A stretch of DNA of 64,000 bases from a bacterium (GTDB taxonomy: Bacteria; Patescibacteriota; Minisyncoccia; UBA6257; JAGOQP01), in assembly GCA_021780155.1 (NCBI GenBank), contig JAJXZH010000032.1:8889-72888 (forward strand), written 5' to 3'. The notes beneath the pieces are model-generated. The model was not told where the DNA came from and did no database searches. It worked only from the letters and a program-made list of their open reading frames with translations. Within the stretch, counting starts at the first letter, position 1, and each line of letters starts with the position of its first letter. Position numbers and translations under genes: made by a program. Shown here in pieces: positions 2,360 through 23,790 of this stretch.

Positions 2360-4963
2360 TTATTCAAGGTGCACCTGCTCTCTGAACATTTTAACATAGG
2401 CGGCCAGATAGGGATGATTTTCAAGTTCCGGATCGGATTTTATAATTTCATAAGCGCTGTCTCGGGCAGTCTGGACCAGCTGAGGATTTTGAATGGCTTT
2501 CATTGCCAGGTCGGGTAGTCCAGATTGTTCTTGCCCCAAAAACTGACCCGGACCTCTTAATTTCAAATCAATTTCTGCCAGCTCAAATCCATTTTTGGCG
2601 TTTACCAGCGCCTTCATTCTGTAAGCGGTTGTTTTTGAATTAATATCCGAAAACAAAAAACAATATGATTGATGCTCTCCTCGGCCCACGCGCCCTCTAA
2701 ACTGATACAATTGGGAAAGACCGAAATGTTCGGAACCTTCAATAAGCATTACGGTAGCGTTGGGGATGTCTATGCCGACTTCAATTACTGAAGTGGAAAC
2801 CAGAATATCATATTTTTTATCTTTGAAATCCGTCATTATCTTTTGTTTTTCCGCCGACTTCATTCGTCCGTGCAAAGAAGCGATTTTGAAATTCGGAAAT
2901 ATTTTTTTGGATAATTTTTCCGTTTCTTCTTTAACCGATTTTACCTCCAAATTAAATAACTGGCGGCCAGTCAGGGGAGCTTCCGGATCGGGTGGTTCTA
3001 TTCGCGGACAAATAACAAAAGCTTGTCTCCCGGATTTTATTTGTTGAGTGACAAAATCATAGGCCTTCTGGCGATTAGCTGAAGTCACGGCTTTGGTGAT
3101 AATTGGTTTTCTGTTTTTTGGCAGTTCATTTATCAAGGATAAATCCAAATCTCCAAAGGCGGTTAAGGCGAGAGTGCGGGGTATTGGTGTTGCGCTCATA
3201 CTCAACAGGTGTGGTATCACCAACTCGGATTTACTCTGATTAGACTCGGATTTATTCGGATTATCATAATTTTTGTCGTAAATAATCCTTTGTATTTCTA
3301 GTTTTACATTTCCGAAATTCACCAATAGAGCTAATTTATATTCAGAACCTTTAAGATAATTCCATACTTGTCTTTTTTCAATATTTCCAATAAATGGCAA
3401 TGCTTTCAATTCTAATATTATTTTATTTTCTATTATCAGGTCTGGTTTATACGCGCCAACCTTTTTATCGTTATATTTTATCGTGATGGATTTTTCAGTA
3501 TCGAAATTAATTCTCTTGCTCCGTAGTTCTTCGAGTAGTGCTTTGTGATAAATAACTTCTTTATGACCCGATCCAATTTGATTGTAAACATTAAATAGCG
3601 CTCCTCTTATTTTGTATGTAAGATCTTCGTAAATTAAGTTCGGTTTGGCATCATCCGTTTTTATCCGTGTATTAATCTGTGAATATCCGCGTGTGAGCAA
3701 TGCGCGCTGATTGACTCCGAAACGATGCTGTTCATCAATTACCACCAATGCCGGATTTTTGAATTCAACTCCTTTTTGAATTATAGAGTGAGTTCCTATA
3801 ATTATTTTTATTTTTCCGGATTTGATTTGGGAAAGAAGTTCCTTTTTCGAGATTTCCGTTTCCAGCCCATCTCCATGAAAAGATAATGTTTGGGCCGACG
3901 TTAGTAGCGCTATGCCGTCAGAAAATTCTTCAAAATATTTTTTGAACGTTTCATAGTGCTGGCGGGCAAGGACTTCCGTTGGAGCCATCAAAATTGCTTG
4001 TTTATTATTGTTGGCTACAATTAGCGATGCGATTGCGGCAACGATGGTTTTTCCCGAACCAACATCTCCCTGAAGTAGACGGCTTGTCGGGTGCGTTTTT
4101 TTTAAATCTTCAAGAATTTCATAGAGTGATTTTTTTTGAGCCAGCGTCAATTCAAATGGTATATATGAAAAAAGCTTTTTTATGTATTCCGGAGAATAAT
4201 CGCATGAGTAGGCATCTTGTTTTGAAAGATGCTCCCGCTCGGAAGCGTTTACCAGTTGCAGTAAAAATAAATCTTGAAAAGAAAACCTCCTTTCAGCTTC
4301 TTGAGCTTGTTCTATCGTGTCCGGGTAATGAATTTGAGCAAACGAGTCGGCGAGTGAAGGAAAATTAAATTCTTGAACTACATTTTCCGGCAAAAATTCG
4401 GGACTGTCGGCAAAATCAGGCAATATTTTACTGACAACAAAACGAATCATTTTTGATGTGACCCCTTCGGTTTGGGGATAGACCGGAACCAATCGGCCGG
4501 TGTGGCGAGTTTCCTGAAATTCATCATTAATAATTTCAAACATTGGATTTTGGAATGTAAGATGTTTTCCCTGAAGCATCGGTTTTCCGGCAAAATTAGC
4601 AAACTTTCCTTCTTTTAAAGTGTTAATTAGAAATTTTTGATTAAACCAAACGGCTTTAACCTTTCCGGTTTCATCAGAAATGGTTGCCTCCACTATCCAC
4701 ATTTTTTTGTGGAAAGTTTTATAGATGCCGACTTTTTCTATTTTTCCATAAACTGTCGCTATTTGACCTTCGGCAAGGTCGGATATTTTTGATATTTTTG
4801 AAAAATCCAAATATCTGAAAGGAAAGTAATATAAAACATCTTTAACCGTTTTGAGCTTAAGCTTGGAAAGTTTTTCTGAAATTTTTTGTCCGATGCCTGA
4901 AATTGAAGTTAATGGTGATGAAAAAGAAATCATAAAAAACATTTTACTACTTATTGTCTCCAA
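2360..4963 (-). CDS. recG: ATP-dependent DNA helicase RecG carrying an in-frame ~155-aa insertion (GxxExxY / PD-(D/E)xK-like) between motifs II and III
   Basis: Walker A GDVGSGKT, DEQHRFGV, SATPIPRTL and QLYQFRGRVGRG motifs, plus the N-terminal wedge/OB region. The true start may be the internal Met at 4933. Confidence 0.85.
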   Translation of the reverse strand: METISSKMFFMISFSSPLTSISGIGQKISEKLSKLKLKTVKDVLYYFPFRYLDFSKISKISDLAEGQIATVYGKIEKVGIYKTFHKKMWIVEATISDETGKVKAVWFNQKFLINTLKEGKFANFAGKPMLQGKHLTFQNPMFEIINDEFQETRHTGRLVPVYPQTEGVTSKMIRFVVSKILPDFADSPEFLPENVVQEFNFPSLADSFAQIHYPDTIEQAQEAERRFSFQDLFLLQLVNASEREHLSKQDAYSCDYSPEYIKKLFSYIPFELTLAQKKSLYEILEDLKKTHPTSRLLQGDVGSGKTIVAAIASLIVANNNKQAILMAPTEVLARQHYETFKKYFEEFSDGIALLTSAQTLSFHGDGLETEISKKELLSQIKSGKIKIIIGTHSIIQKGVEFKNPALVVIDEQHRFGVNQRALLTRGYSQINTRIKTDDAKPNLIYEDLTYKIRGALFNVYNQIGSGHKEVIYHKALLEELRSKRINFDTEKSITIKYNDKKVGAYKPDLIIENKIILELKALPFIGNIEKRQVWNYLKGSEYKLALLVNFGNVKLEIQRIIYDKNYDNPNKSESNQSKSELVIPHLLSMSATPIPRTLALTAFGDLDLSLINELPKNRKPIITKAVTSANRQKAYDFVTQQIKSGRQAFVICPRIEPPDPEAPLTGRQLFNLEVKSVKEETEKLSKKIFPNFKIASLHGRMKSAEKQKIMTDFKDKKYDILVSTSVIEVGIDIPNATVMLIEGSEHFGLSQLYQFRGRVGRGEHQSYCFLFSDINSKTTAYRMKALVNAKNGFELAEIDLKLRGPGQFLGQEQSGLPDLAMKAIQNPQLVQTARDSAYEIIKSDPELENHPYLAAYVKMFREQVHLE

Positions 4964-5141
4964 ATTACAGAAATAGCCAATAAATTTTTCTCGATTTTCA
5001 TCTAAAACTTTATCTTTGTTTGGTGCTCATATTTGCCACCGATCTGAAATTTGACCCGTGGTCAATATCAATAATACTAACAAATTTCACTCAAAATAAG
5101 GTTTGGGGCGTATATTTGAGACGGCAAAAAACAATAAAATC

Positions 5142-5183
5142 AATCTGTCAAGTATCTCACGATCGTGAGATACTTGACAGATT
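5142..5183. promoter_or_regulatory. Perfect 42-bp palindrome (21-bp arms) in the divergent recG/glutaredoxin intergenic region; candidate operator
   Basis: aatctgtcaagtatctcacga|tcgtgagatacttgacagatt reads identically on both strands. No T-run follows and both flanking genes diverge from it. Confidence 0.5.
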
Positions 5184-5331
5184 TGTGTCGGTCGCTTATA
5201 TTTACTCAATTGATTTTTGATATGATTTCCGAAGCAAGTTTGCATTCAATTTTGTCCGATATGATTTTTTGAAAATGTTTTTCCGTTATTTGTGAACGAT
5301 TTGATGGTAGTTTTTTTAATTTATTTTTTGG

Positions 5332-5340
5332 TGTTATAAT
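5332..5340 (+). promoter_or_regulatory. Extended -10 element TGTTATAAT upstream of the glutaredoxin gene
   Basis: The same 9-mer precedes the znuA-like gene (15068-15076) and the 164-aa ORF (16776-16784). Confidence 0.4.
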
Positions 5341-5441
5341 TAAATTAAATATTATAGAATATGAAAACTTGTAAATTCTCAAAAAATTGCAGGAGGTAAA
5401 ATTCAAACGATACTTTAGAAAATATAATTAATTTAAAAAAT

Positions 5442-5675
5442 ATGATAAAAATTTATTCAACTACGCATTGCCCGTATTGCAAAATGGCAAAAGATTACTT
5501 TGATAAAAATAAAGTGGAATATAAAGATTACAACGTTGAGGCTGATGAAGAAGCGCTGGCGGATATGGTTAAAAAATCTGGCCAGATGGGAGTCCCGGTA
5601 ATAGATATTAACGGCACTATTATTGTCGGTTTTGACAGGGGAGCTATTGATCAAGTATTGAGTTCCAAAAAATAA
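5442..5675 (+). CDS. Glutaredoxin / NrdH-like redoxin
   Basis: CPYC active site near the N-terminus; 77 aa; thioredoxin fold. Confidence 0.8.
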   Translation: MIKIYSTTHCPYCKMAKDYFDKNKVEYKDYNVEADEEALADMVKKSGQMGVPVIDINGTIIVGFDRGAIDQVLSSKK

Positions 5676-5766: not shown

Positions 5767-6222
5767 ATGTTAACTCTTGAACAGATGTTAATCAGGTTGG
5801 TTATAGCTTTGGCGTTGGGATTTATTATGGGATTTGAAAGAGAGCTTATAGGTAAAGAGGCCGGAGTTAGAACTTGTATGACGGTGGCTTCCGGTGCCGC
5901 TATTTTTGCCATGATATCTATAACCCTTCCTTATATTGTGGCAATTTCTCCGGAAAATCTTTCCGATGTTATTGCCAGAAATAGCGGGTTTTTGACGGTT
6001 GTTGCCAATATCGTTGTTGGTATCGGATTTTTAGGAGCAGGCATAATTATAAAAACAGAAGAAAAAATAAAAGGAGTAACAACTGCCGCGTTGATCTGGT
6101 TTGTGGCGGCGGTTGGCGCTTTGGTTGGATTGGGACTTGTTGATTTTGCAATAATTGCCTCAATAACCATAACCTTGATTTTGTATGTTTTAAGGAATAT
6201 TAGTTTTGGAAAAAAATCTTAG
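5767..6222 (+). CDS. MgtC/SapB family membrane protein
   Basis: N-terminal LALGFIMGFEREL...GVRT signature and hydrophobic helices. Confidence 0.7.
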   Translation: MLTLEQMLIRLVIALALGFIMGFERELIGKEAGVRTCMTVASGAAIFAMISITLPYIVAISPENLSDVIARNSGFLTVVANIVVGIGFLGAGIIIKTEEKIKGVTTAALIWFVAAVGALVGLGLVDFAIIASITITLILYVLRNISFGKKS

Positions 6223-6262
6223 ATTTTTTGTGGTGATTGTTAATTATTAATCAATAAAAAAT

Positions 6263-7189
6263 ATGTATGATGTTGCAATAATCGGCGGAGGACCGTCAGG
6301 AGTGGCTGCCGGTATTTATGCCTCAAGAAAAAAATTAAAATCGGTTTTAATTACCAAAGATTTTGGTGGTCAATCGGTCAATTCTGCGTCTATTGAAAAT
6401 TTTATCGGATATAAATCAATTAGCGGAGTTGATTTTGCAAAAACCATCGAAGAGCAACTAAGAGCCAATGACGGAATTGAAATTAAAGACGGATTGCTTG
6501 TTGTCTCCGTAAAAAAGCTTGGTGATTATCTTTTTGAAATAACCGATAGCGCCGGCGGAATTTATCAAACAAAAACCATTTTGTATGCGGCGGGTAGCGT
6601 TTATAAAAAATTAGAAGTTCCCGGAGAAAAAGAATATGAAGGCAAAGGAGTTTTTTATTGTTCTATCTGTGATGCTCCGCTGATGAAAGGCAAATCGGCG
6701 GCGGTAATCGGCGGAGGAAACAGCGCGCTTGAAGCGGTTATAGATCTTTTGCCGTATGCTTCAAAAATTTATTTAATTACCAGAAGTGGCATAAAAGGCG
6801 ATGCCGTTTATAGAGAAAAAATAGAAAAAGAAAGCAAGGTGGAAATTATAAACAATGCCAATACTCAAGAAATTTTTGGAGATGCTTTTGTCAAAGGAAT
6901 GAAATACAAAGATTCAACAACAAACGAAGAAAAAACTCTCGATGTTTCCGGAGTTTTTGTTTCTATAGGATGGACGCCAAACTCCGGATTGATAAAGGAT
7001 TTGGTCAAGGCCGACGCCAAGGGGCATATTTTAGTTGACTCTAAAACTCAACAATCATCAATGCCGGGTATCTGGGCGGCGGGAGATGTAGCAGACGGTC
7101 TTTATGCCCAAATCGGTCCGGCGATAGGCGAAGGTATAGTGGCACTATTGAATATCTATGACTATATTGTTTCCGAAAATAAAGCATAA
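6263..7189 (+). CDS. trxB: Thioredoxin-disulfide reductase
   Basis: FAD motif GGGPSG, redox CSICD (CxxC), NADPH motif GGGNSA and C-terminal GDVAD. Confidence 0.85.
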   Translation: MYDVAIIGGGPSGVAAGIYASRKKLKSVLITKDFGGQSVNSASIENFIGYKSISGVDFAKTIEEQLRANDGIEIKDGLLVVSVKKLGDYLFEITDSAGGIYQTKTILYAAGSVYKKLEVPGEKEYEGKGVFYCSICDAPLMKGKSAAVIGGGNSALEAVIDLLPYASKIYLITRSGIKGDAVYREKIEKESKVEIINNANTQEIFGDAFVKGMKYKDSTTNEEKTLDVSGVFVSIGWTPNSGLIKDLVKADAKGHILVDSKTQQSSMPGIWAAGDVADGLYAQIGPAIGEGIVALLNIYDYIVSENKA

Positions 7190-7243
7190 AAACTTTTTGG
7201 ATTTTGGATTAAAGAAAAAATCTTTTCTTTAAATTACAAAAAA

Positions 7244-7618
7244 GTGCCTTTTGAGGCGCTTTTTGTTATAATAGAAGTAATTATGATTTTGGTTTATTCT
7301 CTCAAAAATTTTATATTAGATATCCTTCTTTTTTTCAAGCATTGGTATTGGGACGGATTTCATTTTATCTACGGTAAAGCGCTTGGAATTATAAGAGGAT
7401 TGGAAAGGAGTTTGGCAATAAGAATCAATTTAAGATTTCTCTTTCAGCCGTTGTATCAGGAATATAATATTTATGGCTATGTTTTGGGCTTTCTGTTTAG
7501 ATTATTTAGAATTTTATTTGGCGGATTGGGATATTTATTGATAATGGCATTTTTTCTACTCGTTTATTTATTGTGGGCGGTTTTTCCAATTTTTGCCGTT
7601 TATAAAATATTTAAATAA
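7244..7618 (+). CDS. Small hydrophobic membrane protein, hypothetical
   Basis: ORF only; several predicted TM helices. Confidence 0.35.
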   Translation: MPFEALFVIIEVIMILVYSLKNFILDILLFFKHWYWDGFHFIYGKALGIIRGLERSLAIRINLRFLFQPLYQEYNIYGYVLGFLFRLFRILFGGLGYLLIMAFFLLVYLLWAVFPIFAVYKIFK

Positions 7619-7638: not shown

Positions 7639-10191
7639 ATGTCTGAAAATAACGAAAACGAAAAAAATAAATATTTGAGAATTGGAATTGAGCAGGTAAG
7701 TTTTAATCATTATTTGTTTAATGCCGATAGAATGGGTAGGTCGCTATCCAGAATATTTTTTTATGTTTTTTTTATTTTCGTTTTAGGAGCTATCGTCGCC
7801 GGATTTCTTTCCAATATTTCGCATTTGAATTGGGCGGCAGTTTTGGGGTCCCTTTTTGTATTGGATTATATTTTTCATTTTCGCTCATCGCATTTTTCCA
7901 TTAAAGCTTTATTAAAGGGAGAAATCCCGAAAAACAATGTCGCTCTTTGTGTTGATAGAGAATCTATCCATTATTCGGTTAATGCTTTTGAAAAAATATT
8001 GAGTTTGGGAGGAGATTTGAATTTGGCGATGATTATGGAGCTTATGGATACCGGTCCGGTAGAATTGGCGTTATCGAGATTGGACGTCTCAATAAAAGAT
8101 TTTAAGGAAAAAACGGAAAAAGAATTACAAAACTCAATAAACAATTCAAGTAAAGTTTCAAAAAGCGAACTCTTGGAGCAGATGAAAAAAATTTTTTGGC
8201 TAGCTGCAATTGATGCCGATTTTCACGGAAGACATTCGGTAGAAAGCGATCTACTGTTTTCATCTTTAACATCCGTCAACGATCCGTATATCTCAAAAAT
8301 AATGGATTTTTTTTCAATTAGCGCCCAAGACGTGGATTCGGCGATGGTTTTTGGAAAGTTTTCCAAAAGCAGATGGAGAATTCCTTTTTTTACCGGAGGA
8401 TTTGGAATGAAAATGGTAAAAATAAAACCATCAAGGGTTAATAGAACCTTTACTTCTCGCCCGACTCCGCTTTTGGACAATTTTTCGGAGGATATAACCG
8501 ATTTGGCCAGAGCCGGAGTGGAAGGTTTTTTGATAGGTCATCAAAAAGAATATGATCAGATGGTTGATATTTTATCAAGGCAGGGGAGCAGAAATGTTCT
8601 TTTAATAGGGGAACCCGGTATTGGCAAGGAATCTTTAGTGGCTCATTTGGCTTTGAATATTGTTTCCGACAATGTTCCAAAAACTCTTTTTGACAGAAGA
8701 TTGGTTAAGTTTTCGATAGGAGATTTAATATCACAAAGTTCTGAAAATGAAACTTCCGATCTTTTTGCCAAAATAGTCAAAGAAATAATAGCGGCGGGAA
8801 ATATAATTTTATACATACCAGAAATTCACTTGCTTGCCCAAAAAGCTCAATCCAGCTCCATTCAACTTTATGATTTTTTGATGCCGGTTATAAAGAGCGA
8901 TGCTTTTCCCGTCATCGGAGCGACTTATCCAAAAGAGTATAAAGAATATATTCAAAATGAAACCGGATTTTCCGAAGTTTTTGAAAACTTAAATATCGGA
9001 GAAATATCGCAACAAGAAGCGATAACTCTTTTGACTTACGATTCATTGGTTATGGAAAAAACATATAAAGTGTCTATAAATTTTTCAGCTATAAAGCAAG
9101 CGGTTTTTCTAGCGGGAAAATATTTCAATTATAAGCCATTGCCGGCAAATGCCAGAGAAATTTTTAAAGAAGCTCTTGCTTCTGCCACGCAAAAAGGGCA
9201 AAAAAGCATAAACGGAGACGATATTGCCGAAGTTGTAGAGAGAAAGATAAATGTTCCAATACACAAAACAGGGAAAGCGGAGGCTCAAACGCTTTTAAAT
9301 TTGGAGTCGATTATTCATGAAAATTATATAGACCAAGACAAAGCGGTGTCGGCAGTCTCCGAAGCTCTCAGGGCTTATCGTAGTGGTCTTTCTCGCAAAG
9401 GCGGGCCAATAGCAACTTTTCTTTTTGTTGGACCGACTGGAGTGGGGAAAACGGAATTATCCAAGATTTTGACCGAAATCCAATTCGGTTCGGAAAAATT
9501 CATGGTTCGTTTTGATATGTCCGAATATCAACAAAAAGAGAGCATCTCCCGTTTTATCGGTTCGACTGACGGAAAAATTGCCGGTTCTTTAACTGAGGCA
9601 ATTATTCAGAGCCCTTACAGTTTAATTTTGTTGGACGAGTTTGAAAAAGCTCATCCGGATATTTTAAATTTGTTTTTACAGGTTTTTGATGACGGAAGAT
9701 TGACCGATAGTTTGGGACGAGTGGTTGATTTTCAAAATACGATCATCATTGCGACATCGAACGCCCAGTCGGTTTATATTCAAGAACAGATTGCTGCCGG
9801 TAAAAAAATTCAGGATTTTGCCGATGAAATAAAGAAAAAATTATTTGATTATTTTAAGCCGGAATTGATTAACAGATTTTCTGACATTATAGTTTTCAAG
9901 CCGTTATCAAAAGAAGATATTACTAGTATCGCCAAAATAAATTTGGCGAGCTTGGCAAAAAATCTTGACGAATCACAAGGAATAGTTATTAAATTTGATG
10001 AAGACGCAATTGAAAAAATAGCCGCCTTAGGGTATGATCCGGCTTTTGGTGCCAGACCATTAAGAAGGGCAATTGACGAAAGTATCAAGTCGGAACTTTC
10101 CAAAGAAATTCTATCCGGTCGGATTTCAAAGGGGCAATCCGTTAATGTTGTTTTGGATCAATCCCAAAATTTTAAATTTGATATAATTTAA
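7639..10191 (+). CDS. Clp-family AAA+ chaperone ATPase (ClpA/B/C-like) with an atypical N-terminal TM region
   Basis: D2 domain has GPTGVGKTEL and LLDEFEKAHPDILNLFLQVFDDGRLTD. D1 Walker A reads GEPGIGKE, with E in place of T/S. A Clp_N-like repeat and TM helices lie at the N-terminus. Confidence 0.75.
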   Translation: MSENNENEKNKYLRIGIEQVSFNHYLFNADRMGRSLSRIFFYVFFIFVLGAIVAGFLSNISHLNWAAVLGSLFVLDYIFHFRSSHFSIKALLKGEIPKNNVALCVDRESIHYSVNAFEKILSLGGDLNLAMIMELMDTGPVELALSRLDVSIKDFKEKTEKELQNSINNSSKVSKSELLEQMKKIFWLAAIDADFHGRHSVESDLLFSSLTSVNDPYISKIMDFFSISAQDVDSAMVFGKFSKSRWRIPFFTGGFGMKMVKIKPSRVNRTFTSRPTPLLDNFSEDITDLARAGVEGFLIGHQKEYDQMVDILSRQGSRNVLLIGEPGIGKESLVAHLALNIVSDNVPKTLFDRRLVKFSIGDLISQSSENETSDLFAKIVKEIIAAGNIILYIPEIHLLAQKAQSSSIQLYDFLMPVIKSDAFPVIGATYPKEYKEYIQNETGFSEVFENLNIGEISQQEAITLLTYDSLVMEKTYKVSINFSAIKQAVFLAGKYFNYKPLPANAREIFKEALASATQKGQKSINGDDIAEVVERKINVPIHKTGKAEAQTLLNLESIIHENYIDQDKAVSAVSEALRAYRSGLSRKGGPIATFLFVGPTGVGKTELSKILTEIQFGSEKFMVRFDMSEYQQKESISRFIGSTDGKIAGSLTEAIIQSPYSLILLDEFEKAHPDILNLFLQVFDDGRLTDSLGRVVDFQNTIIIATSNAQSVYIQEQIAAGKKIQDFADEIKKKLFDYFKPELINRFSDIIVFKPLSKEDITSIAKINLASLAKNLDESQGIVIKFDEDAIEKIAALGYDPAFGARPLRRAIDESIKSELSKEILSGRISKGQSVNVVLDQSQNFKFDII

Positions 10192-22788: not shown

Positions 22789-23790
22789 ATGAGCATCGAC
22801 TTTAATTTTTTAAAAGATAGAAAAAAATTTATTTTTTTTATTGCCGCCGTGTCGGCATTTTTAATTTTGGTTTTAATTTATTGGTTTTTTTTCAGCGCTC
22901 CGCAAAGGGGAGCCAAAGAAGAAACGTTTTCAATTTTGTCTTCCTATAGTTATTCTCAGGTAGTTGGTCAATTAAGGTCGTCGGGTTTTATAAGAAGCCG
23001 AACGGCTTTTGATTTTGCTTTTAGAGGAATTTCGAGAAGCAAAAAAATTTATTCCGGCGGATATATGATTTCAAAGTCAATGAACGTTTTTGAAATTGCG
23101 CGAATTTTATCGCATTCGCCATATTTAAGATGGGTGGTTATTCCCGAAGGATTAAGAAAGGAAGAAATTGCCGCCATTTTACAAAAAAATCTTAGCTGGA
23201 GCGATGCGCAAAAAAATGAATGGATAAATGTCGATACCAATCAATCACCGGATTATTTTGAAGGAGTTTACTTTCCCGATACTTATTTGGTTCCGATTTC
23301 GGAAAGCCCCTCTGATATAGCCAAAAGATTGGTGGCAAAATTTGAACAAGAATTTTCTCCTTACGCCCAACAAGCTCAAAAACAAAACATGAAGTGGACG
23401 ACGGTTCTAAAAATCGCATCAATTATTCAAAGAGAGGCGGCCGGGGCAAATGACGCCAAATTAATTTCGGGAATCATTTGGAATCGGCTTTTGAAAGGAA
23501 TGAAACTTGATATGGATTCTACCGTCCAATATGCCAGAGGAAACACCGGCGATGGCTGGTGGGCTCCAATTACGACAGCGGACAAACAGCTGGATTCCCC
23601 CTACAATACTTATAAATATTCAGGACTTCCCCCTCACCCGATAGACAATCCCGGAGTTATAGCCATTGATGCCGCTATAAATCCACAAAAAACTGATTGT
23701 CTCTATTATTTGCACGACCATTCCGGGCAAATTCACTGCGCCGTTGATTATCAACAGCATTTGAAAAATGTCCAAACTTATTTAAGATAA
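22789..23790 (+). CDS. mltG: Endolytic murein transglycosylase MltG (YceG-like)
   Basis: N-terminal TM helix; YceG domain with conserved Y.PDTY and later conserved blocks. Confidence 0.7.
   Translation: MSIDFNFLKDRKKFIFFIAAVSAFLILVLIYWFFFSAPQRGAKEETFSILSSYSYSQVVGQLRSSGFIRSRTAFDFAFRGISRSKKIYSGGYMISKSMNVFEIARILSHSPYLRWVVIPEGLRKEEIAAILQKNLSWSDAQKNEWINVDTNQSPDYFEGVYFPDTYLVPISESPSDIAKRLVAKFEQEFSPYAQQAQKQNMKWTTVLKIASIIQREAAGANDAKLISGIIWNRLLKGMKLDMDSTVQYARGNTGDGWWAPITTADKQLDSPYNTYKYSGLPPHPIDNPGVIAIDAAINPQKTDCLYYLHDHSGQIHCAVDYQQHLKNVQTYLR

Follow-up and report, generated by a model that had tools for sequence, protein, structure and literature searches.

A 42-bp perfect palindrome upstream of a glutaredoxin–clpB gene cluster in Patescibacteria as a candidate operator of a PaaX-like winged-helix/Cas2-like protein

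Repressors of chaperone genes described in bacteria include HrcA, HspR, and CtsR. In Streptomyces, Helicobacter, and Campylobacter, the MerR-family repressor HspR is encoded by the last gene of the dnaK operon, and its inverted-repeat operators, named HAIR (consensus CTTGAGT-N7-ACTCAAG), are located at the dnaK operon and at clpB. HrcA is encoded by the first gene of hrcA-grpE-dnaK-dnaJ, and its operator CIRCE is a perfect inverted repeat that is highly conserved across a large bacterial radiation, with a 9-N9-9 architecture (TTAGCACTC-N9-GAGTGCTAA) and a position usually downstream of the -10 hexamer. PaaX, the repressor of phenylacetate catabolism, possesses a PaaX_M Cas2-like domain together with an N-terminal winged helix. 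In REP/RAYT systems, short intergenic palindromes are present in tens to hundreds of copies per genome, two of them enclose a single-copy gene, and the element classes co-vary with their proteins. The dif sites of the Xer system (11-6-11) occur as a single copy per replicon. Transcriptional regulation in the CPR/Patescibacteria, a largely uncultivated group that accounts for a large part of bacterial diversity, is to our knowledge almost undescribed.

Based on conservation, dispersal, and linkage to a protein family, a 42-bp palindrome in a patescibacterial genome is proposed to be the operator of a PaaX-like winged-helix/Cas2-like protein, with a rough probability of 0.55. The site would overlap the -35 hexamer of a grx...clpB promoter, and the protein may exert stress-responsive repression on chaperone and protease operons, including grpE-dnaK-dnaJ, and on its own gene. 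An operator for a symmetric DNA-binding regulator, which the original prediction had put forward for this site, is thereby the best-supported reading of the sequence data. The palindrome lies in the window (the whole stretch of DNA analysed, 64 kb in length), within an intergenic region of ~500 bp between recG on the minus strand and a glutaredoxin gene on the plus strand, which diverge from it as originally described. An inverted-repeat search confirmed the zero-spacer repeat at 5142–5183, with arms of 21+21 nt (AATCTGTCAAGTATCTCACGA and TCGTGAGATACTTGACAGATT) that are 100% complementary, and returned no longer inverted repeat in the window. Its length was rightly judged too great for chance, as only 5.8e-8 zero-spacer palindromes with arms of at least 21 nt are expected from the base composition of the window. 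No second match to the half-site was found in the 64 kb with up to 3 mismatches allowed, and no degenerate or additional copies in the window scored above shuffled controls. Four independent assemblies of the same organism contain the palindrome unchanged, so that it is not an assembly artefact. The features of the locus, compared with those of another species (L010), are as follows.

5142–5183, no strand: perfect 21+21 palindrome (inverted-repeat search, significance, symmetry profile, identity with L010)
5174–5179, plus strand: -35 hexamer TTGACA, inside the right arm of the palindrome; together with the -10 hexamer, an 11/12 match to the sigma-70 consensus (promoter scan)
5197–5202, plus strand: -10 hexamer TATATT, 17 nt after the -35 hexamer (promoter scan); in L010, the -10 block TCGCTTATATTTACTCAAT is unchanged (19/19)
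5332–5340, plus strand: possible second, proximal promoter with an extended -10, TGtTATAAT (sequence reading); TGGTATAAT is found in the corresponding L010 region at another distance
5442–5675, plus strand: glutaredoxin gene, the first downstream of the promoter (PF00462, E = 7.7e-19)
5767–7618, plus strand: mgtC-family gene, thioredoxin-reductase-like gene, and 124-aa ORF, closely spaced in a putative operon (ORFs and domain search; order identical in L010)
7639–10191, plus strand: ClpB-type disaggregase, the classical stress gene among those of the putative operon (AAA_2 and ClpB_D2-small; no Clp_N match)
2360–4942, minus strand: recG, the divergent neighbour (domain search; real ATG near 4942)

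Transcription from the predicted promoter would start at ~5208–5210, and Nudix and PGM (phosphoglucomutase) genes follow clpB with gaps of 4–11 nt. Upstream of grx, no structured leader RNA was recognized, the predicted fold being no better than shuffled sequences (z = -0.17). In the opposite direction, the TTGACA of the left arm is followed by no -10 hexamer at 16–18 nt in either the window or L010, and no evidence was obtained for the palindrome as a recG promoter. The likely targets are chaperone and protease genes (see below) rather than DNA-repair and redox genes as such. A block of ~85 nt just before the glutaredoxin start (5358–5441) is 100% identical to L010, while the coding sequence has synonymous changes; this block contains a 12-codon ORF (MKTCKFSKNCRR, 5361–5399) and a GGAGG sequence 45 nt before the grx ATG. 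RecG of the window carries a 137-aa in-frame insertion (aa 415–551; window 3290–3700, minus strand) with a PD-(D/E)XK_3 nuclease domain inside the helicase core. The insertion is absent from the RecG proteins of L010 and of a second relative, L009 (79% and 89% identical, respectively), and its DNA has a GC content of ~0.28–0.30, below that of the remainder of the gene.

L010 is a different species, in which the synteny recG<>grx-mgtC-trxB-orf-clpB is the same as in the window. Its palindrome core is identical in 38 of 38 nt, and its spacer between the promoter hexamers is still 17 nt with a changed sequence, while the remaining intergenic DNA is diverged or deleted. At the level of sequence, the comparison is a phylogenetic footprint of a predicted promoter with an embedded symmetric site, and the possibility considered originally, that the sequence occurs only here and is absent from orthologous intergenic regions, fails. 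The second palindrome reported with the first, TTGACC-CGT-GGTCAA at 5051–5065, exists as described. However, a perfect 6-3-6 repeat should arise by chance ~23 times in 64 kb (64000 x 0.267^6), and this palindrome is missing from the orthologous region of L010; it therefore carries no weight. In L009, the closest relative with a different synteny, a putative tRNA gene, recognized by eye, lies upstream of recG at 9840–9915 in place of the grx-clpB cluster, which indicates that the recG/grx juxtaposition is not universal in the group. The palindrome core was not found in the 22 kb of L009 examined.

Some contigs break at copies of the palindrome. Among short-read contigs of several public assemblies, L005 and L006 start at window position 5155, inside the palindrome, and L121 and L122 end near the site after the paaX-like gene described below. 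Such breaks are consistent with a multi-copy self-complementary repeat that breaks assembly graphs, and genome bins of the organisms may be split at precisely the putative regulatory sites. As for the composition of the window, GTAC is strongly avoided (7 observed vs 36 under a Markov expectation and 212 under a mononucleotide expectation), and both CTAG (22 vs 45 expected) and GATC (111 vs ~220 expected) are depleted, which suggests restriction-modification pressure. GATC is retained in the palindrome centre CGATCG despite its window-wide depletion.

The 20-nt core of the palindrome, TATCTCACGATCGTGAGATA, occurs in 92 metagenome stretches, mostly from groundwater and aquifer samples, vs ~1 expected, and the core-bearing stretches represent 60 independent contexts when the flanking DNA is grouped by blastn clustering. 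The search for further copies that was recommended originally thus yielded a large family; no match to the core was found in viral contigs. On contigs of at least 30 kb chosen for having at least one site, 17 exact-core sites are present in 760 kb, a regulon-like density, which after ascertainment correction corresponds to ~1 extra core site per 190 kb. Across the 60 contexts, the centre CGA|TCG (5160–5165 in the window) is invariant, and at positions 11–17 from the centre complementarity is 93–100% with variable base identity. The commonest arm variant at these positions is GTCAAG/CTTGAC, and CTCACT/AGTGAG, GTCTTC/GAAGAC, TCGCTCC/GGAGCGA, and others are also found. Complementarity declines to 70–75% at positions 18–19 and ~50% at positions 20–21, and is at background (~0.3) from position 22 on. 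According to this symmetry profile, the constrained unit is ~34 bp (±17 nt, ~5146–5179 in the window), and the 42 bp of the window comprise this unit and 4 extra symmetric positions per arm.

The outer CTGT...ACAG of the palindrome had been compared with the ends of LexA-type sites, and together with the DNA-repair neighbour it could point to an SOS box for recG and the redox genes. This assignment is barely conceivable, and the resemblance does not hold, because LexA boxes have the pattern CTGT-N8-ACAG (16 bp) or CGAAC-N4-GTTCG, whereas CTGT (5145–5148) and ACAG (5177–5180) are 28 nt apart rather than 8, positions 17–20 from the centre are variable across the 60 contexts, no SOS genes were found among those starting beside a site, and the linked protein is not LexA-like. 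The RecA, LexA, and Uvr families are absent from the 25 commonest Pfam families of the 44 genes starting beside a site, and the recA-containing loci L112, L114, and L127 possess no exact-core site beyond those flanking the paaX-like gene.

Sites are found in intergenic regions of all three orientations (convergent, divergent, and tandem), none of which is strongly preferred; ~16 of the 51 classifiable contexts lie between convergent genes and 13 are divergent. Many sites directly follow stop codons, in a few members with the CTCACTT variant an A-tract and a T-tract lie on opposite sides of the site, and a terminator scan flags the minus strand of the window, where 19 pairs are followed by GATTTTATTG. 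These positions and tracts would suit an element whose long perfect stem acts at the RNA level, through termination of transcription (intrinsic or bidirectional), cleavage by RNase III, or stabilisation of the mRNA. Such a role is nevertheless very improbable: the genes of the window diverge, the site is upstream of the predicted transcription start with no known transcript across it, 13 contexts are divergent, and the family-wide T content after the stem is no higher at gene ends (3.08 T per 10 nt on gene-end sides vs 3.0 on gene-start sides). Membership in a known RNA family was likewise rejected, since Rfam searches, whether at the gathering or at permissive thresholds, returned nothing beyond noise from generic hairpins (miRNA models). 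That the palindrome is not a terminator, as first judged from the divergent genes and the missing T-run, is upheld by the plus strand without a T-run, the weak GATTTTATTG of the minus strand, and the lack of T enrichment in the family.

All-against-all clustering of the ORFs flanking the sites revealed one dominant ORF family (~200 aa), which adjoins the site in at least 8 independent contexts. The linked proteins, of ~200–220 aa, contain the PaaX_M central Cas2-like domain (PF20803, E = 1e-12 to 1e-17), which is precomputed on nearly all of 120 listed homologues. In an AF2 model (pLDDT 73.7), a winged helix composed of helices and a beta-hairpin wing is followed by a beta-alpha-beta-beta-alpha-beta domain. 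A structure search with this model gave E. coli PaaX (8a39) as the best PDB match, followed by MarR/PadR-type winged-helix regulators and Cas2, and the N-terminal half of the linked protein is predicted to be a winged helix. The N- and C-terminal Pfam domains of PaaX were not detected, and TIGR02277 scored 18 bits vs a cut-off of 264.55; the linked protein is a distant, shortened relative of PaaX. Neither an HrcA nor a MerR domain was found by domain search. A profile search returned ~1,370 relatives (cluster representatives), essentially all from Patescibacteria, many of which are auto-named "Cas2". A score at the Cas2 model cut-off is obtained from the first ~40 residues of the domain, and some members exceed the TIGR01573 cut-off with only model positions 1–43 of 96 aligned (the beta1-alpha1 region), so that the database names can be attributed to this region of the C-terminal domain. 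Neither a cas1 gene nor a CRISPR array was present near the site or the gene in the gene tables of 11 lineages, and a repeat finder detected single or paired palindrome sites only, without a repeat-spacer array.

The paaX-like gene is flanked by zero-spacer palindromes of lineage-specific sequence in all 11 lineages examined. The same palindrome design is kept where the protein is only 30–40% identical, and 10 of the 11 lineages have CGA|TCG as the centre. Examples of the flanking palindromes are as follows.

L112/L113: arms TTACTATGTTATTCCGCGA and TCGCGGAATAACATAGTAA
L114/L115: arms AAACTATCCCATCCTACGA and TCGTAGGATGGGATAGTTT
L116: first arm ACCTTACATCACTCACGA, two copies
L129: first arm CTATCACTATTATATAAAACGA
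L127: related sites
L128: imperfect pair with a different centre

A site that changes together with the protein is what a cognate DNA-binding partnership predicts. Separately, the palindrome has a perfect DnaA box (TTATCCACA) at a distance of ~5 nt in 15 orthologous metagenome loci (L020, L025, L037, L040, L043, L044, L049, L057, L066, L068, L086, L092, L093, L099, and L105), between the paaX-like gene and the gene for a ~190-aa membrane protein. As there is no cluster of boxes, this region is not an origin. A replication origin was also rejected for the window, in which GC skew is positive on both sides, and no DnaA-box cluster is present either in the window or beside the L068 palindrome.

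The co-variation of palindrome and protein is also known from REP classes and their RAYTs, and the palindrome could be a dispersed element, a ~34-bp unit that spreads by copying or insertion, perhaps assisted by the Cas2-like protein whose gene it flanks. The copy in the window would then be a passenger, with an outward-facing TTGACA that forms a promoter only incidentally, and any regulation would be secondary. Several observations agree with such an element. The protein gene lies between two copies in every lineage examined, the downstream site being present even where the next gene is convergent; the intergenic sites of the family show no strong orientation preference; and the aspartate of the Cas2 beta1 "FDIPE" motif is retained in the linked protein. 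In addition, in a gene for a SAM-dependent methyltransferase (Methyltrans_SAM), the palindrome forms an exact in-frame 12-aa insertion (GQVSHDREILDN) in the interdomain linker (L108 1583–2551, L091, L030, and L023 376–1395), which is absent from the L117 orthologue. The L023 methyltransferase has a far longer low-complexity linker around the palindrome. On the other hand, the copy number is low, and REP-type abundance is not approached by 1 copy in 64 kb and 17 in 760 kb of site-selected contigs. The orthologous copy in L010, the -10 hexamer, and their spacing are kept across species while the flanks decay, and the paaX-like gene is found in stable conserved synteny rather than in variable places. 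Domain and profile searches of the linked protein found no HUH, Y1_Tnp, transposase, or integrase domain, and cas1 is lacking at the loci. Taken together, a copied element of this kind appears doubtful as the main explanation.

The symmetry itself also has to be accounted for. At position 11 from the centre, the information content is 0.34 bits, yet complementarity is 100%. Pairs of sites on the same contig often differ by changes that are mirrored in both arms, as for TATCTCAC vs TCTTTCAC in a 15-member group and in L026, L079, and L083, which indicates that the symmetry itself appears to be maintained. Symmetry at positions free in base identity and mirrored changes within one genome, together with the CGA|TCG centre of nearly all lineages and a single-strand DNA hairpin of dG = -19 kcal/mol (z = -7), could reflect an extruded cruciform or hairpin at which cleavage, resolution, or recombination takes place, or which is the target of a hairpin-dependent protein, instead of a B-form operator. 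A cruciform or recombination site had also been named as the alternative in the original prediction. A XerC-like recombinase gene would fit this picture in several Parcubacteria-type lineages, where it is the upstream neighbour of the paaX-like gene (L112, L113, and L115; nearby in L116). The XerC-like tyrosine recombinase beside the paaX-like gene in L127 (7742–9910) has an intein with a LAGLIDADG endonuclease. A structure-dependent site is nonetheless improbable: unlike dif, the palindrome is present in several copies per genome and has no spacer, no resolvase or HUH gene is consistently linked to it, and its G+C-rich centre disfavours cruciform extrusion. Symmetry can, moreover, also be produced by quasipalindrome correction.

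The operator reading is connected with chaperone genes through gene order. In one clade (loci L032, L054, L073, L096, L067/L108, and L117/L118), the arrangement is corA<-[site]->paaX-like-[site]-grpE-dnaK-(membrane protein)-dnaJ, in which the paaX-like gene occupies the slot where hrcA sits in many bacteria. In L117 and L118, which encode protein P0059, the exact 19+19 palindrome of the window is found before grpE, and a 16/17 + 17/17 copy is found before the paaX-like gene; at these sites, the arm TTGAC(A/G) is followed after 16–17 nt by TAGAAT or TACAAT. The GC content of L117/L118 is 35.8%, similar to that of the window, and their assemblies belong to the same database accession series as those with the window. 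Among the places listed, the P0059 loci and the glutaredoxin gene of the window overlap only at sample ERZ27237541. From the identical palindrome, the similar GC content, and this co-occurrence, P0059 may belong to the organism of the window. The 64-kb window itself contains no PaaX_M homologue, a weak tblastn match at 22885–23265 being YceG/MltG, and no dnaK or groEL motifs were found in it.

Promoter geometry is enriched where TTGAC arms face a gene start: 7 of 28 such arms are followed at 16–18 nt by a -10 hexamer matching at least 5/6, vs 0 of 28 at a control offset and 2 of 24 for arms that face a gene end. A TTGACA arm with a TATAAT-like hexamer 16–17 nt further on is shared by the paaX-like, grpE, and window promoters, and the same geometry is found at paaX-like promoters of other lineages, several of which are apparently leaderless. 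Outside the paaX-like/grpE cassette, strong geometry is found only at the window/L010 site. Among the genes starting next to a site are clpB at an unrelated locus (L107, with the site 171 nt upstream) and clpP (L081), and also the housekeeping genes leuS, mreB, ftsA, dnaE, and tgt. The likely regulated genes are a chaperone/protease set, namely grpE-dnaK-dnaJ, clpB, and clpP. A scan of the window and all loci for CIRCE, with 3 mismatches allowed, gave a single match, at L084 5004–5030, where AAAGCACTC-N9-GAGTGCTAA lies ~100 nt upstream of groES-groEL; the palindrome is present on the same contig (8257). In the L084 genome, the palindrome system probably coexists with HrcA/CIRCE rather than replacing HrcA. 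In other bacteria, HspR and CtsR are each known to coexist with HrcA.

A possible mechanism for repression at the palindrome can be outlined as follows. The C-terminal PaaX_M/Cas2-like domain probably makes the protein a dimer or a dimer of dimers, and the operator would span roughly -65 to -25 of the near-consensus sigma-70 promoter, including the -35 hexamer. The bound protein may exclude RNA polymerase from the promoter, and grx-mgtC-trxB-orf124-clpB(-nudix-pgm) could thus be repressed until a stress signal releases the protein. The protein probably also regulates its own gene and controls grpE-dnaK-dnaJ, in whose operon its gene is the first in the clade described above, as well as clpB and clpP elsewhere, and would be a functional analogue of HspR/HAIR or HrcA/CIRCE. 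The operator reading is drawn from the L010 conservation, the dispersal of the site, its link to the protein, the regulator slot, the promoter geometry, the clpB and clpP contexts, and the protein architecture. We infer binding of the protein to the site, repression rather than activation, the stress signal, and the presence of the protein in the genome of the window.

A plain operator is strained by the share of sites between convergent genes and by the site after the paaX-like gene where its neighbour is convergent, as well as by the housekeeping genes beside sites and the restriction of strong geometry outside the cassette to the window and L010. The mirrored changes of two sites in one genome are not explained by the specificity of one protein. 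These changes, the sites between convergent genes, and the in-frame methyltransferase insertion keep a REP-like or mobile origin alive. Template-switch "quasipalindrome correction" could have produced the mirrored changes, and the gradual loss of symmetry beyond ±17, as a mutational by-product; alternatively, both could result from selection for a cruciform or hairpin. Template-switch correction is known from E. coli genetics and yields symmetry without structural function. It is also conceivable, with low probability, that the palindrome is a self-symmetrising, insertable cis-element, the ~34-bp unit of which is recognised and perhaps processed by the Cas2-like domain, so that new insertions recruit genes to a regulon. 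If so, it would represent a mobile operator system and a CRISPR-independent partnership of a Cas2-like protein with a repeat, with a possible bearing on the origin of repeat-recognising adaptation modules. The maintained symmetry and the in-frame insertion also make the site a naturally occurring model for the persistence and spread of long perfect palindromes.

Literature searches, which included the core sequence, found no published description of the palindrome/protein system, although their coverage is incomplete and an earlier description is possible. The pair of chaperone-gene repressor and operator proposed here would be a new one, in which the protein represents a new family and the site is perfectly symmetric and of unusual length. 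The hypothesis is a concrete one: one small protein family, often misannotated as "Cas2", and one recognisable DNA site that marks the operons of dnaK and clpB. Its confirmation would place a further class of chaperone-gene repressors beside HrcA, HspR, and CtsR, correct a systematic "Cas2" annotation error, and supply a marker sequence by which stress regulons can be recognised in metagenome bins.

Compared with the known systems, the palindrome does not share the defining features of CIRCE, HAIR, the CtsR box, the LexA box, dif, or CRISPR and is not a member of these families; it is probably not a REP element either. The linked protein shares with PaaX the PaaX_M Cas2-like domain and the N-terminal winged helix, but it is ~100 aa shorter, its loci have no paa operon, and the terminal PaaX domains went undetected. 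Its likeness to Cas2 lies in the beta1-alpha1 region of the C-terminal domain; in contrast to Cas2, this domain is fused to a winged helix, and neither cas1 nor a CRISPR array accompanies it. As in REP/RAYT systems, intergenic palindromes flank a single-copy gene and co-vary with its product; unlike REPs, the sites are far fewer, are perfect palindromes, and contain promoter elements, and the protein has no HUH/Y1 domain. In contrast to dif/Xer, at least 3 sites are present in the P0059 lineage when the copy of the window is counted, and they have zero spacer. As in HrcA/CIRCE, the regulator gene would be the first before grpE-dnaK-dnaJ and the site, a perfect inverted repeat, is highly conserved and spread over a large bacterial radiation; however, the palindrome has no 9-nt spacer. 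As in HspR/HAIR, the candidate repressor gene lies within a dnaK operon, and inverted repeats are found at both the dnaK operon and clpB. This resemblance is functional only, because the protein combines a winged helix with a Cas2-like domain instead of belonging to the MerR family, its gene is first rather than last, and the site is a 34–42-bp zero-spacer palindrome of different sequence instead of a repeat with an N7 spacer. By analogy, the palindrome system would work most like HspR/HAIR or HrcA/CIRCE.
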